A stretch of 64,000 bases of DNA, from the sequence record PZ445550.1; one strand, written 5' to 3'. The stretch comes from a phage. Shown piece after piece: positions 7,454-20,419 of this stretch. Position numbers and translations under genes: made by a program. Positions within the stretch are counted from its first letter, which is position 1. Every line of letters starts with the position of its first letter. The notes beneath the pieces were generated by a model. It ran no database searches. It had not been told where the DNA came from and saw only the letters and a program-made list of their open reading frames with translations.

Positions 7454-8863
7454 ATGTCTTTACAACTATTACGTAATACTCGAATCTTCGTGTCTACTGT
7501 TAAGACTGGTCATACCAAAGAAAACACGCAAGAGATTCTAGTTCAGGATGATATTTCTTGGGGTCAGGACAGTAATTCCACAGATATTACTGTTAACGAA
7601 GCAGGTCCACGACCAACTCGTGGTTCAAAACGTTTCAATGACTCCTTAAATGCTGCTGAATGGAGTTTCTCAACATATATCCTCCCATATAAGGATAAAA
7701 CCACTAATAAGCAAATAGTTCCTGACTATATGTTATGGCATGCTCTTTCTAGTGGTAAAGCTCTAAACTTAGATGGTGACACTGGGGCACATAATAACGA
7801 AACTAACTTCATGGTTAACTTTAAAGATAATTCTTATCATGAGTTAGCTATGTTGCATATTTACATCCTTACTGATAAAGCATGGAGTTATATTGACTCT
7901 TGCCAGATTAATCAGGCAGAAGTAAACGTTGATATCGAGGATATTGGTCGTGTAACTTGGTCTGGTAATGGTAATCAGCTAATTCCACTGGATACTCAGC
8001 CCTTTGATCCAGATGTGGTAGGTATTGATGATGAAACTTATATGACTATTCAGAGTTCTTATATTAAGAATAAGTTAACTATCCTAAAAATTAAGGATAT
8101 GGATTCTGATAAGGCATATGACATTCCTATTACTGGCGGTACTTTTACCATTAATAACAATATCACGTACCTAACTCCAAATATTATGTCTCGTGTAAAT
8201 ATTCCAATTGGTTCATTTACGGGTGCATTTGAATTAACTGGCTCTCTAACGGCGTATCTTAATGATAAAGCTCTCGGATCTATGGATTTATATAAAGATC
8301 TGATTAAAACCCTTAAGGTAGTTAACAAGTTTGAGATTGCACTCATTCTTGGTGGTGAATATGATGATGAGCGTCCAGCAGCTGTACTAGTTGCTAAACA
8401 AGCCCACGTTAACATTCCTACTATTGAGACTGATGATGTACTTGGTACTTCAGTAGAGTTTAAGGCTATCCCTACAGATTTGGATACTGGTGATGAAGGT
8501 TATCTTGGATTTTCTAACAAGTATACAAAAACTACTGTAGCTAATCTGATTGCTACAGGAGATGGTGCTAAAACCCCACCAAAACTGGTGGAGTCAATCA
8601 CAGTTAAATCTGCTAGTGATGCTACTTCTGTAGAAAATAGTAATACTCTACAGATGTCTGTCGAAGTAACTCCATCGGATGCCACTAATAGCGCAGTAAC
8701 TTGGTCTATTTCTAGTGGTAACGCAGCTACAATTGATGCAGAATCTGGACTATTAACTGCTGATGCCTCTAAAACAGGCGCTGTTACTGTAAAAGCTGTA
8801 GCTAAAGACGGTTCTGGTGTAGAAGGTACTAAGAGCATTACAGTTACTACTTCTGGTGGCTAA
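7454..8863 (+). CDS. Major tail tube protein (pb6-like) with C-terminal Ig-like domain
   Basis: 469 aa (T5 pb6 is 464); C-terminal Big2-like segment (TVKSASDATSVENSNTLQMSVEVTPSDATNSAVTWSISSG...). Confidence 0.75.
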   Translation: MSLQLLRNTRIFVSTVKTGHTKENTQEILVQDDISWGQDSNSTDITVNEAGPRPTRGSKRFNDSLNAAEWSFSTYILPYKDKTTNKQIVPDYMLWHALSSGKALNLDGDTGAHNNETNFMVNFKDNSYHELAMLHIYILTDKAWSYIDSCQINQAEVNVDIEDIGRVTWSGNGNQLIPLDTQPFDPDVVGIDDETYMTIQSSYIKNKLTILKIKDMDSDKAYDIPITGGTFTINNNITYLTPNIMSRVNIPIGSFTGAFELTGSLTAYLNDKALGSMDLYKDLIKTLKVVNKFEIALILGGEYDDERPAAVLVAKQAHVNIPTIETDDVLGTSVEFKAIPTDLDTGDEGYLGFSNKYTKTTVANLIATGDGAKTPPKLVESITVKSASDATSVENSNTLQMSVEVTPSDATNSAVTWSISSGNAATIDAESGLLTADASKTGAVTVKAVAKDGSGVEGTKSITVTTSGG

Positions 8864-8867
8864 TTAA

Positions 8868-9770
8868 ATGTACTACTCTCTAATGCGAGAGTCAAAAGTT
8901 ATAGTTGAGTATGATGGTAGGGCATTTCATTTTGATGCCCTATCAAACTATGATATACAGACTTCCTACGAGGAATTCAAGACTCTTCGTAGGACTGTAC
9001 ATCGTAGAACTAACTATGCAGACTCTATTATAAATGCCCAAACTCCTTCCTCTATTTCACTAGCAGTAAATTTTAGTAATACTCTTACTGAAGCTAACTT
9101 TTTTGAGTGGTTAGGATTTGATAGGAAGGGCAATACTTTTTTATTACCATTATATAGTATTAATATTGAGCCTATTATGTTCAATATTTATATAGTGAAT
9201 AAAGATAACAACTGCGTATACTTTGAAAACTGCTATGTATCTACGATAGATTTTTCTTTAGACAAAAATATACCAATTCTTAATATTGGTATTGAATCGG
9301 GGAAATTCTCTGAAGTATCCACATTCACAGAGGCAGCTTCTATTATACAAGGTGAAGTAATGTCTTATAGCCCAGTAATAGCATATACCAATGGCAGTAC
9401 ATTACCTGGTCTTATTTCTGCTTCTCTATCTTTCCAGCAGCAATGTTCCTGGAGAGAAGATAAGAGTGTTTTCGACATAAATAAAATTTATAATAATAAA
9501 AGAGCCTATGTAAACGAAATGAATGCTTCGGCAACCATTTCCCTATACTACTTAAAACGTTTTGCGGGAGATATGGTTTACAATATTGAACCGGAAACAG
9601 ACGTACCTTTAACTATAAGAAATAATAATATTTCTATAGATTTTCCTTCAGCACGTATTACAAAACGCCTAGATTTCTCAGATGTGTATAGAGTTGAGTG
9701 GGATATTATACCTACTGCTTCTTCGGACCCAGTGAGAATAGATTTCTTTGGAGAAACTAAAAATGATTAA
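8868..9770 (+). CDS. Hypothetical tail-associated protein
   Basis: 300-aa ORF between tail tube and chaperone genes. Confidence 0.4.
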   Translation: MYYSLMRESKVIVEYDGRAFHFDALSNYDIQTSYEEFKTLRRTVHRRTNYADSIINAQTPSSISLAVNFSNTLTEANFFEWLGFDRKGNTFLLPLYSINIEPIMFNIYIVNKDNNCVYFENCYVSTIDFSLDKNIPILNIGIESGKFSEVSTFTEAASIIQGEVMSYSPVIAYTNGSTLPGLISASLSFQQQCSWREDKSVFDINKIYNNKRAYVNEMNASATISLYYLKRFAGDMVYNIEPETDVPLTIRNNNISIDFPSARITKRLDFSDVYRVEWDIIPTASSDPVRIDFFGETKND

Positions 9771-10167
9771 TTTAAAAGATATTACTCTTGATACCCGTAC
9801 TATTACTCTTTCTTACCCAGGTATGCCTAACTTTAAATTAGAACTCAATTATATGTCTCGTGCTACCTCTAAACGTGTTATTTCTTCTGCTAAACGCGAT
9901 GAATGGGTTAATGGTACACTGATGCAAGTACAAGATGATGACAAGTTCATTGAAGCATTTGTTGATGCAGCTATTAAAGGCTGGACTGGCCTAACAGTAG
10001 GTGATGTTGAAAAACTAATGTTAATTGAAACTGATGCTGACCCTGCTACTGAAGTTCCTTTTACCCGCGATAATGCTGTAATGCTTATGCAGAACTCTGC
10101 TGCGTTTGATTCTTGGATCAACCAGACAGTGTTCCACTTAGACACTTTTCGTAGCTCAAAAGCGTAA
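9763..10167 (+). CDS. Tail assembly chaperone (putative)
   Basis: ORF just upstream of tape measure; start taken at ATG 9763, overlapping the upstream stop. Confidence 0.45.
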   Translation: MINLKDITLDTRTITLSYPGMPNFKLELNYMSRATSKRVISSAKRDEWVNGTLMQVQDDDKFIEAFVDAAIKGWTGLTVGDVEKLMLIETDADPATEVPFTRDNAVMLMQNSAAFDSWINQTVFHLDTFRSSKA

Positions 10168-10228
10168 AGAACTCCTAGATGCTGTTGCTGATTTTGCAGA
10201 TAAATGTATTAAAAGCTCAGCATCTAAA

Positions 10229-10597
10229 ATGACTAAACAACAATATTTAATACTTTGTGAGTCGATGGGTATTGAGCCTGATCCTAAAGCTATGCCTGTC
10301 GAACTTGAAGATTTTCCTCCTATTGTAGCTATTAGCATGAATATTTATAATAGTCTAGTTGACTGCTTCATACCAGGTGACTTTCCTATTTTTATAGGTA
10401 AAGACAAAGCTGCTTTAGGTGTTTTATTTGATATTTATGGGATCACTGACCCTATAGAAAAAGAATTCGTTCTACACATTATCAATATATTTGATGCTAA
10501 AGCTGTAGATGCTGCACGTAAACGCGCCGAGAAGCATAAACCGCAAAACGGAAGAATACCTAACGTTAAGCCACATGCTAGATCTCGAGCACGGTAA
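10229..10597 (+). CDS. Tail assembly chaperone, second ORF (possible frameshift partner)
   Basis: Reading frame is open from 10142, overlapping the end of the preceding chaperone ORF with no in-frame ATG; position before tape measure. Confidence 0.4.
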   Translation: MTKQQYLILCESMGIEPDPKAMPVELEDFPPIVAISMNIYNSLVDCFIPGDFPIFIGKDKAALGVLFDIYGITDPIEKEFVLHIINIFDAKAVDAARKRAEKHKPQNGRIPNVKPHARSRAR

Positions 10598-10632
10598 AAG
10601 TTTCCTCCAATGGGCGTTCCACGATGAGGCTT

Positions 10633-10665
10633 GGCTCTGGGTGATTTGCCCAGAGCCTTTTTTAT
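10633..10665 (+). terminator. Rho-independent terminator before tape measure gene
   Basis: Hairpin GGCTCTGGG-TGATTTG-CCCAGAGCC followed by TTTTTT. Confidence 0.65.
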
Positions 10666-10680
10666 TGGGAAAAATAAAAT

Positions 10681-13600
10681 ATGACTGATAAGCTAATACG
10701 AGAATTATTAATAGACGTTAAACAGAAGGGGGCAACTCGTACTGCAAAGTCTATTGAAAACGTAGCTGATGCATTAGAGAACGCTGCTGCTGCTTCTGAA
10801 CTAACAAATGAACAGTTAGGTAAAATGCCCAAAACTCTATACTCCATTGAGAGGGCAGCAGATAGAGCAGCAAAAAGTCTTACTAAAATGCAAGCTAGTA
10901 GAGGTATGGCTGGTATCACTAAATCCATTGATGGTATTGGTGATAAGCTAGATTACCTGGCTATCCAACTTATTGAAGTAACAGATAAACTAGAAATTGG
11001 ATTCGACGGAGTTTCTAGATCTGTTAAAGCAATGGGTAATGATGTTGCAGCTGCAACAGAGAAAGTTCAAGATAGATTGTATGATACCAATAGAGTTTTA
11101 GGGGGTACAACTAGAGGTTTTAATGATACTGCGGGTGCTGCTGGTAGAGCCTCTAGAGCTATTGGTAATACTTCTGGTTCAGCACGTGGTGCTACTCGTG
11201 ACTTTGCGGCAATGGCTAAAGTTGGCGGTGGCTTACCATTATTATATGCTGCTATAGCTTCTAACATCTTCGTTCTGCAATCTGCATTTGAACAACTTAA
11301 ACTAGGTGATCAGTTAAATCGTCTAGAAAAATTTGGTGTTATAGTTGGTACTCAGACTGGTACTCCAGTACAAACTCTAGCTAGATCCTTACAAGAAGCT
11401 GCTGGATATGCAATATCCTTTGAAGAAGCAATGAGACAGGCGTCCTCTGCTTCCGCTTATGGGTTTGATGCAGAACAACTTAATAAATTTGGTCTAGTAG
11501 CTCGCCGTGCTGCTGCTGTTCTTGGTGTTGATATGACTGATGCACTTAATCGTGTAATCAAAGGTGTATCTAAACAAGAAATTGAACTTCTGGATGAACT
11601 TGGCGTTACTATCCGTCTTAATGATGCTTATGCCGATTATGTTAAACAATTAAATGCGGCAAATACTGGTATAACATATAATGTTAATAGCCTTACTACT
11701 TTCCAGAAACAGCAAGCGTACGCCAACGCTGTTATAGCGGAGTCTACCAAACGCTTTGGATATCTAGATCAAGTATTGCGTGCTACCCCATGGGAACAGT
11801 TTGCTGCTAATGCTGATGCTGCATTAAGAACTATACAACAAGCTGCTGCTAAATATTTGGGTCCAGTCATTGATGCTATTAATACAGTGTTCTATACTTC
11901 ACAAGCCTCTGTATCAGCAGAAGCTGCTAGGGCACAGGAAAAAACCAATAGGCAGATAGATCCTACTAATGTGGGTGCTGTTGCTTTAAGTTTGGCTGCT
12001 TCTGAGGAAGGGTATAACAAAGCCTTAGATATGTATAAGGAATCGCTTGATAAGCGTAATAAACTTAAATCAGAATTTGACAAACGAATGGAGCAGGCAG
12101 ATTTTTACACAAAACTAGCAATACGACAAGTGGGAGAAGGTATTCCTATTGGTATTGCTGCTGCTGGTGCCTCTGAGGCTAATAAAAAATTCGTAGAAGA
12201 AACTGCCGCTATGGGTCTGCAAGTAACCAGATTAGGCAAAGAAGTAGAAGATTCTACCGAAAACCTTAATGCCTGGAAATCAGCCTATCAAGCTGCTGGA
12301 GCTGCTGCTGCAAAAGCTAATCCAGAGTTCCAAAAACAGATTAATCTACAAAAAGATACTACAGATCCAGATGCTGTATATGACTTTAACTCTACAGTAT
12401 TAAAAGGATTAACTGAACAACAGAAGGCATACAATCAAACTAAGAAAACTGCTAGTGATTTAGCTAATGATATACAGAACGTTGCACAGAATACAGATAC
12501 TGCCGCAAAAACTAGTGCTACTTTAGCAGATGCTATAAAAAATATAGAATCCTTGTCTCAGGGTACTGGAAAGAGTGCCGATGAGTACGTTAAGAATCTT
12601 AACTTAGGTTATAACACACTGTCTGAAATGAAAACTGCTTCTCAAGCCCTGTCTGAATATGTTAAATTAACAGGTAATGAGACTAAAAACCAACTAGCGG
12701 TCCAACAAAAGATAGCAGATGTATATAACCAGACTAAGGACAAGGAAAAAGCCCAAGAAGCTGGTAGACGTTTAGAGCTACAACAGTTAGAAGAACAAGA
12801 GGCTGCCCTACGTCGTGTTCTTCAAACAAACCAGGGAAATAAAGCTATTGAAGGTGAAATAGCTAAGTTACAGTTAGAAAAGCTCAAACTTACTAATCAG
12901 GGTATGGAAGCCCAGAAGAAGGTTAAAGACTATACAGATAAGATTCTAGGGGTAGATCGTGAAATAGCACTATTAAACGATCGTACTATGACTACTACAC
13001 AATATAGATTAGCCCAACTAAAACTGGAACTAACTATAGAGAAAGAGAAGTATGAATGGTATTCAAAACAAGCTGATAAGCAGAAGGAAGCTGAACAGTC
13101 TAGACGTGCTCAAGCGCAAATAAGTAGAGAACTATGGGAAGCAGAAAAGCAGGCTACTGCCACTCACGTATCTGCTCTTATGGAAGCTCTAGAGGTTAGC
13201 CAGACATCACGAAATGTTACTGGTCAGGCTCAGATTCTCACTGAAAGATTATCTGTTCTGCAAGAACAATTAGAGTTATCCAAGGGTAATACTGAGGAGG
13301 AAATTAAATATCGTAATGAGATCTATAAAACTTCAGCTGCTTTAGAACAACTTAGAAAACAAAGAGATAGCCAGATGCAGCAACAGGTAGGATCTTCAGT
13401 AGGTGCTGTATACACTCCTACAACTGGACTATCTGGAGAAGATAAAGATTTTGCCGATATGCAAAATAGACTGGCCTCTTATGATCAAGCAATCTCTAAA
13501 CTATCTGAGTTAAACTCTGAAGCAACTGCCGTAGCTCAAAGCATGGGTAATCTCACTAATGCTATGATCCAGTTCTCTCAGGGATCTCTAGATACTACTT

Positions 13601-14361
13601 CTCTAATTGCTTCTGGTATGCAGACTGTATCTTCTATGATTCAGTTCAGTACTAGTCAACAAGTTAGTGCTATTGATGCAGCTATTGCAGCAGAACAAAA
13701 ACGAGATGGTAAATCAGAAGCATCTAAAGCTAAATTGAAGAAGTTAGAAGCGGAAAAGCTGAAAATCCAGCAAGATGCGGCTAAGAAGCAGATTATCATC
13801 CAAACTGCAGTAGCAGTTATGCAGGCAGCCACAGCCGTTCCGTATCCGTTCTCTATTCCGTTAATGGTGGCGGCTGGATTAGCAGGTGCGTTGGCACTAG
13901 CACAAGCATCTTCTGCTTCTGGCATGTCAAGTATTGCTGATTCTGGAGCTGATACAACTAGTTACTTAACCCTGGGAGAGCGACAGAAAAACATAGATGT
14001 ATCTATGTCTGCTAATGCTGGAGAGTTATCCTATATTCGAGGTGATCAGGGTATAGGAGGTGCTAACTCTTTTGTACCTCGTGCCGAGGGCGGTAATATG
14101 TATCCAGGAGTTAGTTATCAGATGGGTGAACATGGTACGGAAGTAATTACCCCTATGGTTCCTATGAAAGCTACACCTAACGATGAGCTTAAAAACTCGT
14201 CTAGCTCAACTTCAGGAAGACCTATCGTCCTGAATATTAGTGCTATGGATGCTGCAAGTTTTAGGGAGTTTGCCTCTAGTAATAGCGGTGCTCTGAGAGA
14301 CGCAGTAGAATTAGCTTTAAATGAAAATGGTGCTAGTCTTAAAACATTAGGAAATTCTTAA
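10681..14361 (+). CDS. Tail tape measure protein (pb2-like)
   Basis: 1226 aa (T5 pb2 is 1219); long coiled-coil-rich ORF with hydrophobic segment near the C-terminus. Confidence 0.9.
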   Translation: MTDKLIRELLIDVKQKGATRTAKSIENVADALENAAAASELTNEQLGKMPKTLYSIERAADRAAKSLTKMQASRGMAGITKSIDGIGDKLDYLAIQLIEVTDKLEIGFDGVSRSVKAMGNDVAAATEKVQDRLYDTNRVLGGTTRGFNDTAGAAGRASRAIGNTSGSARGATRDFAAMAKVGGGLPLLYAAIASNIFVLQSAFEQLKLGDQLNRLEKFGVIVGTQTGTPVQTLARSLQEAAGYAISFEEAMRQASSASAYGFDAEQLNKFGLVARRAAAVLGVDMTDALNRVIKGVSKQEIELLDELGVTIRLNDAYADYVKQLNAANTGITYNVNSLTTFQKQQAYANAVIAESTKRFGYLDQVLRATPWEQFAANADAALRTIQQAAAKYLGPVIDAINTVFYTSQASVSAEAARAQEKTNRQIDPTNVGAVALSLAASEEGYNKALDMYKESLDKRNKLKSEFDKRMEQADFYTKLAIRQVGEGIPIGIAAAGASEANKKFVEETAAMGLQVTRLGKEVEDSTENLNAWKSAYQAAGAAAAKANPEFQKQINLQKDTTDPDAVYDFNSTVLKGLTEQQKAYNQTKKTASDLANDIQNVAQNTDTAAKTSATLADAIKNIESLSQGTGKSADEYVKNLNLGYNTLSEMKTASQALSEYVKLTGNETKNQLAVQQKIADVYNQTKDKEKAQEAGRRLELQQLEEQEAALRRVLQTNQGNKAIEGEIAKLQLEKLKLTNQGMEAQKKVKDYTDKILGVDREIALLNDRTMTTTQYRLAQLKLELTIEKEKYEWYSKQADKQKEAEQSRRAQAQISRELWEAEKQATATHVSALMEALEVSQTSRNVTGQAQILTERLSVLQEQLELSKGNTEEEIKYRNEIYKTSAALEQLRKQRDSQMQQQVGSSVGAVYTPTTGLSGEDKDFADMQNRLASYDQAISKLSELNSEATAVAQSMGNLTNAMIQFSQGSLDTTSLIASGMQTVSSMIQFSTSQQVSAIDAAIAAEQKRDGKSEASKAKLKKLEAEKLKIQQDAAKKQIIIQTAVAVMQAATAVPYPFSIPLMVAAGLAGALALAQASSASGMSSIADSGADTTSYLTLGERQKNIDVSMSANAGELSYIRGDQGIGGANSFVPRAEGGNMYPGVSYQMGEHGTEVITPMVPMKATPNDELKNSSSSTSGRPIVLNISAMDAASFREFASSNSGALRDAVELALNENGASLKTLGNS

Positions 14362-19996: not shown

Positions 19997-20419
19997 ATGA
20001 GTACTGAAAATAGAGTTATAGATCTAGTAATAGATGAAAAAGTACCTTATGGTTTAATGATGCAATTCCTAGACGTTGATGATAGTACTTATCCACCAAC
20101 TAATACTCCAGTTAATCTAACTGGATACTCTCTAAGGGGGACTATAAAAAGTAGCTTAGATGAGAATGCGGAAACCTTAGCATCATTCACTACTAAAATT
20201 ATTGATGCTGCTCAAGGGGCTGTGGCTATAAGTTTACCTGTAGAATCCGTGGAAAATATAGGAGCTAAAGCATCTAAAGATAGGGATAAATATAACCCTC
20301 GTCAGCGATTCGCAGGATACTATGATATAATTATGACTAGAGATGTTATAGGATCTGCAATTAGCTCCTTTCGTATAATGGAGGGTAAAGTATTTATCAG
20401 TGATGGGGTAACTAAATAA
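19997..20419 (+). CDS. Collar protein (p132-like)
   Basis: 140 aa, same length as T5 p132; immediately upstream of tail fibre gene. Confidence 0.55.

Follow-up and report, generated by a model that had tools for sequence, protein, structure and literature searches.

A probable +1 programmed frameshift at UUU_CGN joining the tail assembly chaperone genes of T5-like phages, proposed from comparative sequence analysis

Introduction

Programmed frameshifting in the tail assembly chaperone genes is a textbook feature of long-tailed phages, and in phage lambda the shift site is G_GGA_AAG. The majority form is a −1 shift on a tandem X_XXY_YYZ heptamer, and the −2 shifts of phages Mu and 9g are documented exceptions among phage chaperone genes. 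Xu, Hendrix & Duda 2004 is the reference for this frameshift, that of lambda gpG/gpGT included, and for its conservation in long-tailed phages. Here we analyze two overlapping open reading frames (ORFs) in 64,000 nucleotides (nt) of phage DNA (record PZ445550.1; "the window" below means this whole stretch, to which all coordinates refer). A preliminary description of the window had suggested that a programmed frameshift joins the two. We propose that in this T5-like siphophage they form a chaperone pair of the lambda G/GT type, the first being the G part and the second the T part, and that they are probably joined by a +1 slip at UUU_CGU.

Forward shifts of this kind are known from other settings. 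In influenza A virus, PA-X is expressed from a UCC_UUU_CGU +1 site whose direction was confirmed by peptide sequencing and whose efficiency is about 1%, and UUU_CGN is a predicted +1 site in amalgaviruses and several other RNA viruses (PMC3498833, PMC6356274). According to Firth et al., the preference for CGN in the A site is not clearly explained by tRNA scarcity. In bacteria, the release factor 2 gene prfB carries the +1 site CUU_UGA_C. According to the paper describing PRFect, a general forward-shift motif has yet to be identified. Our full-text literature search found no statement on a T5-type chaperone frameshift, and an earlier description may exist.

The locus described here resembles lambda G/GT in that two small ORFs, the second out of frame and without an initiation signal of its own, lie after the tail tube genes and before the tape measure gene, with a candidate shift-prone site in the overlap; as in lambda, an abundant short protein and a rarer fusion would be expected. 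It differs in its predicted direction, +1, and in relying on a single-tRNA P-site slip (UUU_C) in place of the tandem −1 slip. The UUU_CGN core is identical to that of PA-X and the amalgaviruses, with the +1 ORF read as U_UUC_GNN, conservation at the nucleotide level and no obvious RNA structure, and Pectobacterium phage My1 and the environmental locus L042 even carry TCC_TTT_CGT, as in influenza. In contrast to those viruses, the setting is bacterial translation in a DNA phage, where CGU is the commonest Arg codon and its tRNA is phage-encoded; the E-site codon is variable (ACT in the window); and the product would be a structural-assembly chaperone rather than a polymerase or host shut-off factor. 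The Mu and 9g shifts enter a downstream ORF in the same relative frame (+1/−2), but their sites allow −2 re-pairing (9g: CCCUUUUUUU), which the conserved T5-type site does not in most lineages. With prfB, the proposed event would share a bacterial +1 P-site slip onto a codon beginning UU, but here the A site holds CGT and the 25 nt upstream contain no GGAGG-like sequence.

Results

Two overlapping frames and a proposed shift site

ORF1 extends from the ATG at 9763 to the TAA at 10165–10167 (frame 1). The frame one base to its right, hereafter the +1 frame, is closed by a TAG at 10139–10141 and then open from 10142 to a stop at 10595–10597, a run of 151 codons in which the earliest ATG, GTG or TTG is the ATG at 10229, 29 codons into the open frame. 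The preliminary description had this second frame open from 10142 without a start codon, overlapping the last eight codons of ORF1, and held that joining the two would require a shift of +1 or −2 rather than the usual −1; all of its coordinates and the frame relation proved correct. The elements of the proposed frameshift are as follows.

9763..10167, + strand: ORF1, G-like tail assembly chaperone, 134 amino acids (aa), product of standard decoding (phrog_313)
10142..10167, + strand: overlap of the two frames, 26 nt, comprising the last eight ORF1 sense codons and the stop
10144..10153, + strand: proposed +1 shift site ACT_TTT_CGT_A, with P-site TTT at 10147–10149 and A-site CGT at 10150–10152
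10148..10150, + strand: TTC, predicted position of the P-site tRNA after the slip, with decoding resuming at GTA 10151
10151..10597, + strand: T-like part in the +1 frame, 148 codons and stop (phrog_3914, phrog_313)
10229..10231, + strand: ATG used as the start of the second chaperone coding sequence (CDS) in GenBank records

In the mechanism that we propose, most ribosomes would read ORF1 to its stop and produce the 134-aa G protein, and a minority would slip with UUU (10147–10149) in the P site and CGU (10150–10152) in the empty A site. The peptidyl-tRNA-Phe (anticodon GAA) would move by +1 from UUU, on which its third-position pair is a G:U wobble, to UUC, on which it is a G:C pair. Decoding would resume at GUA 10151 and continue in the +1 frame to the stop at 10595–10597, with the junction ...HLDTF/VAQKRK... 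(slash marking the joint). On the comparative evidence set out below, we consider it likely that a 277-aa G-T fusion is made in this way alongside G, probably with a slip efficiency of a few percent or less.

The motif switches with the frame of the downstream ORF

We analyzed the putative shift site in 91 loci, comprising the window, 10 GenBank relatives and 80 IMG/VR loci found with an alignment of the G protein; two Aeromonas relatives, Akh-2 and AhSzw-1, were examined apart from these. An in-frame TTT_CGN lies inside the overlap in 46/46 loci with a +1 layout, at G protein identities down to 27%, and both Aeromonas relatives have TTT_CGA with the T frame in +1. The other loci have a −1 layout. 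These are environmental contigs whose G proteins are 33–39% identical to that of the window, and 45/45 carry an X_XXY_YYZ heptamer (G_GGA_AAC in 35, A_AAT_TTT in 8 and A_AAT_TTC in 2) that ends at, or one codon before, the Phe codon equivalent to F129 of the window G. The site G_GGA_AAC is one base off that of lambda. Across the 91 loci, the type of motif therefore follows the frame of the downstream ORF without exception: TTT_CGN goes with +1 and X_XXY_YYZ with −1.

Within the +1 loci the conservation is at the level of nucleotides. TTT_CGN encodes F129 and R130 of G, both invariant in 10 diverse homologues, and among 16 deep +1 lineages the invariant bases of a 36-nt span are TTTCG and one T in an upstream Leu/Ile codon. 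Of these lineages, 11 have T and 5 have A as the third base of CGN; in them, as in the 46 loci with a +1 layout, TTT is never TTC and CGN is never AGR. The −1 clade has TTT or TTC as its Phe codon, followed by TCN, CAG, ACG or a stop and never by CGN, which ties the invariant Arg codon to the +1 shift and not to the function of G. From codon usage in the window (62% TTT, 68% CGN), we estimate the chance that about 13 independent lineages would all hold TTT_CGN to be near 1e-5.

Conservation also changes from one frame to the other at the site. The G tails past it are 1–20 codons long and unconserved, and the T frame is gap-free from the site onward wherever the G stop falls. Conceptual fusions built at the +1 and −1 sites align end to end, with no gaps for about 20 residues past the junction. 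In a neighbour-joining tree, the −1 sequences form one clade with the +1 sequences around it, which suggests a single switch of mechanism between +1 and −1; by this comparison, one protein family appears to hold both kinds of chaperone frameshift. The −1 sister clade, made up of uncultured T5-like phages, consists of IMG/VR contigs L047–L055, L058–L084 and L086–L094, and contigs L056, L057 and L085 have the +1 layout. The majority form, a −1 shift on a heptamer, does not fit the window, where the downstream frame is +1 and 10142–10167 contains no X_XXY_YYZ heptamer, or any cultured T5-like relative examined.

A fusion could also arise from a different event in the overlap, either a −2 slip at the same place (...DTFFVAQK...) or a +1 slip of tRNA-Lys at A_AAG, from AAA 10159–10161 to AAG 10160–10162 (...DTFRSSKRKELL...). 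The second frame can also be entered by a −2 shift, a type known for the chaperones of phages Mu and 9g, and in the run of four T's found in the window (ACT_TTT), tRNA-Phe could pair two of three bases on CUU after such a move. However, the codon before TTT is mostly AAC, ACC, TCC, AAT or GGG, so that tRNA-Phe would come to rest on ACU, CCU, AUU or GGU with one of three bases paired. The sequence TCA_AAA_G is present in Tequintavirus, Epseptimavirus and Klebsiella phages, but the AAA_G site is missing in My1, 70E37.1, VPT02, Cilsick, X1 and KEY, in which ORF1 stops one or two codons after CGN. Unlike the −2 and AAA_G sites, TTT_CGN is common to all of the +1 lineages, the only element that is, and UUU-to-UUC re-pairing is the only re-pairing possible in every one of them. 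We therefore favor +1 over −2, since tRNA-Phe can pair again on UUC after a +1 move, while after a −2 move its pairing would be poor in most lineages, and we judge a fusion made by either of the other events to be quite improbable. The predicted AspN junction peptides are DTFVAQKRKELL for the +1 slip at UUU_C, DTFFVAQKRKELL for the −2 slip, DTFRSSKRKELL for the AAA_G site and DTFRSSKA for G only.

Some bacterial and phage genes are known to change frame through slippage by RNA polymerase, and the homopolymers known to be prone to it are far longer than three or four T's. At this locus, slippage on the T run would leave a small share of mRNAs one base shorter or two bases longer, from which standard translation would give the fusion. 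A short T run is indeed present at the site, but it is only three bases long in most lineages and four in the window, too short for transcriptional slippage, and this explanation gives no role to the invariant CG that follows the run. We regard it as very unlikely.

In-frame TTT_CGN occurs 7 times in the genes of the window as against 14.7 expected, an approximately two-fold under-representation that fits a weakly shift-prone sequence. From the site at 10147–10152, the +1 frame is open for 149 codons, whereas at the other six sites (67, 20369, 23502, 26176(−), 41636(−) and 49702(−)) it is open for only 2–32. The sequence at 20369, TCC_TTT_CGT_A, is the exact influenza motif and leads to no long +1 ORF.

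The layout is conserved throughout the family

A tblastn search of 50,697 phage records with the conceptual fusion (9763..10149 joined to 10151..10597, that is, joined after TTT 10149; 277 aa) matched 910 records, whose hosts include Escherichia, Salmonella, Klebsiella, Vibrio, Proteus, Aeromonas, Pectobacterium and others. Among 60 records sampled evenly down the ranking, the match fell into two pieces in two frames in 60/60, and natural in-frame G-T fusions were found in none. The two-frame layout is also present in the 80 IMG/VR loci, and its recurrence across these loci and the 910 records indicates that it is not due to chance. Comparison of the overlap in relatives, by which the preliminary description proposed to check a frameshift, came out in its favor, as did every comparative test capable of refuting a frameshift fusion: the overlap layout and the open frame upstream are conserved family-wide. 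Two of the records, MG065692 (Campylobacter phage C13) and OR846901 (Listeria phage LM 4-11-1), carry the T5-like region at 97.5–99.5% identity; these are probably host mislabels or contaminating coliphage sequence.

The stretch upstream of ATG 10229 is constrained in the +1 frame

Among 26 unique sequences from Tequintavirus and Epseptimavirus, the stretch from the G stop to ATG 10229 varies at 21 sites, of which 16 are silent and 5 replacing in the +1 frame, as against 0 silent and 21 replacing in each of the other frames. The pattern is reversed upstream of the shift site, where frame 0 has 6 silent and 1 replacing. Within the overlap itself, the sole variable site, 10156 (T/C), exchanges Ser and Pro in ORF1 and is silent in the +1 frame (GCT/GCC). 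Judged by these substitutions, sequence that precedes any start codon is already under purifying selection in the +1 frame.

These results bear on the possibility that the pair consists of two independent genes, with ORF2 translated from ATG 10229 or another internal start, possibly by reinitiation after the ORF1 stop, and that no fusion is made. Such is the annotation in every record inspected; a Met codon is present at the position of 10229 in many relatives; and gene callers predict stand-alone T proteins of 90–155 aa throughout a set of 1.84 billion representative proteins. However, ATG 10229 has no Shine–Dalgarno (SD) sequence. Its anti-SD duplex energy, −0.1 kcal/mol, is at background level, whereas 16 neighboring gene starts range from −2.6 to −9.3 kcal/mol (mean −5.9) and the ATG of ORF1 has −6.4 kcal/mol. 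In several lineages the Met is replaced by Ile, Val, Phe or Leu, and across relatives the first possible start lies anywhere from 1 to 35 codons from the shift site and varies in type. The 26 codons before the ATG are the ones under +1 purifying selection, and they are gap-free family-wide. Independent genes would also leave the invariant TTT_CGN and the coupling of motif to frame unexplained. We consider this explanation unlikely, and ATG 10229 is probably an internal Met codon of the fusion.

Both halves match one chaperone family

ORF1 matches the tail assembly chaperone family phrog_313 (E = 8e-34, profile positions 12–141 of 258), and the second ORF matches phrog_3914 (E = 1.3e-56) as well as profile positions 170–258 of phrog_313. 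The conceptual fusion matches phrog_313 in one uninterrupted stretch, residues 1–262 to profile positions 12–258 (E = 1.4e-53), and this single match makes both halves collinear with one family model. A Pfam search gave no match for the chaperone ORFs. A sequence search of the PDB yielded nothing meaningful, its sole match at E ≤ 1 being an unrelated glycerophosphodiester phosphodiesterase (E = 0.32), and a single-sequence AlphaFold model of ORF1 was unusable (predicted local distance difference test score, pLDDT, 34). The chaperone role assigned here is suggested by the PHROG annotation together with gene position.

A word-indexed search of 5.8 billion proteins gave zero matches for the fusion, though the family is abundant in public phage genomes, and we treat this result as a limit of the tool. 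An exhaustive search of the 1.84 billion representative proteins with the T part recovered 146 relatives, 144 of which are stand-alone predictions of 67–178 aa with variable start points. In one large representative protein (P0006, 1455 aa), the T part was matched in eight separate stretches (query residues 89–130), and in another (P0132, 554 aa) in four; some large proteins seem to carry repeats of a T-like motif.

Gene neighborhood

The 1-kb stretch around the ORF pair is 100% identical to Escherichia phage KookSpook and 80–95% identical to more than 440 T5-like phage records; the window is from a T5-like phage. The neighboring features are as follows.

7454–8863: tail tube protein gene
8868..9770, + strand: baseplate tube protein of the T5 p140 type (Pfam PF23779, E = 1.7e-139; phrog_3889), with the same label in KookSpook and T5
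10176..10226, + strand: lineage-specific hairpin with a 9-bp stem (10176–10184 with 10218–10226), ending 2 nt before ATG 10229
10633..10667, + strand: terminator-like hairpin and T-run separating the tape measure gene from the chaperone pair; the 11-bp stem includes 7 G-C pairs, and TTTTTTATTG comes after it
10681..14361, + strand: tape measure protein gene of the T5 pb2 type, 1226 aa (Pfam TMP_N, E = 2.4e-37; TMP_C, E = 6.6e-19)

The local order is tail tube, baseplate tube, ORF1, ORF2 and tape measure, followed by the distal tail and baseplate hub proteins. This is the order of the T5 tail module, and it is unchanged in T5 and 14 other annotated relatives. The TMP_N and TMP_C domains in the 1226-aa ORF confirm that the pair lies immediately upstream of the tape measure gene, as the preliminary description had it, and the chaperones presumably have the tape measure protein as their client. 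If lambda is a guide, G and G-T would act on it together while the tail tube is being assembled, and neither would remain in the virion.

The records of T5 and Sugarland annotate a terminator at the place equivalent to 10633–10667. T5 proper has an HNH endonuclease gene (T5.141) inserted in the gap between the chaperone pair and the tape measure gene, and Vibrio relatives have an extra ORF of about 250 aa in the gap before the tape measure gene. The KookSpook annotation places a 37-aa "hypothetical protein" at window positions 10575–10688, overlapping the end of the T ORF, the terminator hairpin and the start of the tape measure gene; this gene call is probably spurious.

The lineage-specific hairpin has a folding z-score of −2.55, and its stem is kept in 26/26 unique Tequintavirus and Epseptimavirus sequences, with one compensatory change from U-A to C-G and two changes from U-A to U-G. 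It is absent in more distant relatives. As a candidate stimulator of the shift it probably does not qualify, being lineage-specific and starting 27 nt after the P-site codon, which is too far.

The window itself contains no tRNA genes. Elsewhere in the same genome, KookSpook PP925842 positions 22000–43949 hold 24 tRNA genes, including tRNA-Phe(GAA) and tRNA-Arg(ACG), the two tRNAs that would act at the proposed site.

Apparent TAG recoding in Aeromonas T5-like phages

The two Aeromonas relatives, Akh-2 (MK318083; L009:1495-2400) and AhSzw-1 (MG676225; L013:1320-2150), of Shenzhenvirus, have several in-frame TAG codons in their G and T genes. Every internal "stop" in these genes is TAG, and the genes themselves terminate at TGA or TAA. 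A tRNA with anticodon CUA is encoded by AhSzw-1 (L100:10691-10765), whose 50–93 kb region has 3 open stretches of at least 300 codons, and 12 once TAG is taken as sense; no such rise follows when TGA or TAA is treated in this way, nor is one seen in the window. The GenBank annotations of both phages are fragmentary, and the paper on Akh-2 does not mention recoding. Both phages appear to read TAG as sense, which would be an unrecognized reassignment of the amber codon.

Discussion

Our results support the view that the two chaperone ORFs of T5-like phages are joined by a programmed frameshift, as the preliminary description had suggested, the evidence being their conserved layout, the motif in the overlap, selection in the +1 frame, the lack of a ribosome-binding site at 10229 and a collinear family profile.

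Nonetheless, several observations weigh against this view or against parts of it. The fusion is deduced from sequence comparison rather than demonstrated, and the same is true of the slip and of its direction, +1 and not −2. A joined CDS is annotated in none of the sixteen GenBank/RefSeq tables, from fifteen phages, that we inspected (KookSpook, phiLLS, T5, faergetype, Kpn02, My1, VPT02, Cilsick, Akh-2, 70E37.1, KEY, JSF10, AhSzw-1, X1, Sugarland and Sealy). When a 10-sequence G alignment was compared with lambda gpG in hhalign, the probability was 0.4%, with no detectable similarity. We found no SD-like sequence upstream of the site, no downstream RNA structure common to all lineages and no Rfam match within 9700–10750. 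The six other TTT_CGN sites tolerated in the window indicate that efficiency is probably low. Finally, a rationale based on a "hungry" or slow A-site codon fails, given that CGT is the commonest Arg codon in the window (410/873) and that the phage supplies tRNA-Arg(ACG) and tRNA-Phe(GAA). CGU is also common in E. coli (table in PMC3498833).

If our interpretation is correct, UUU_CGN, known from influenza A virus and from RNA viruses of plants or fungi, also operates, or arose independently, in a bacterial DNA virus in which CGU is not rare, which would bear on why the A site favors CGN. Automatic frameshift predictors would also gain a defined forward-shift motif. One tentative idea is that UUU_CGN is intrinsically shift-prone in both bacteria and eukaryotes through an effect of CGN that is independent of codon rarity, arising either from the inosine-containing tRNA-Arg(ICG) or from a slippage property of UUU_C, with the phage tRNAs perhaps tuning efficiency. 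As part of the same speculative proposal, T5-like phages might have kept UUU_CGN for a very long time to set the ratio of G to GT. T5 and E. coli would then offer a genetically tractable system in which to study a mechanism of frameshifting not yet explained for influenza virus.

For the phages themselves, the implications concern both annotation and evolution. T5 and roughly 900 sequenced relatives are annotated with two separate chaperone genes; if the frameshift occurs as proposed, these annotations would be corrected and one 277-aa protein added per genome. Within the family, a change from one shift direction to the other, +1 and −1, at virtually the same codon would be direct evidence that selection has acted on making the fusion and not on the mechanism by which it is made.

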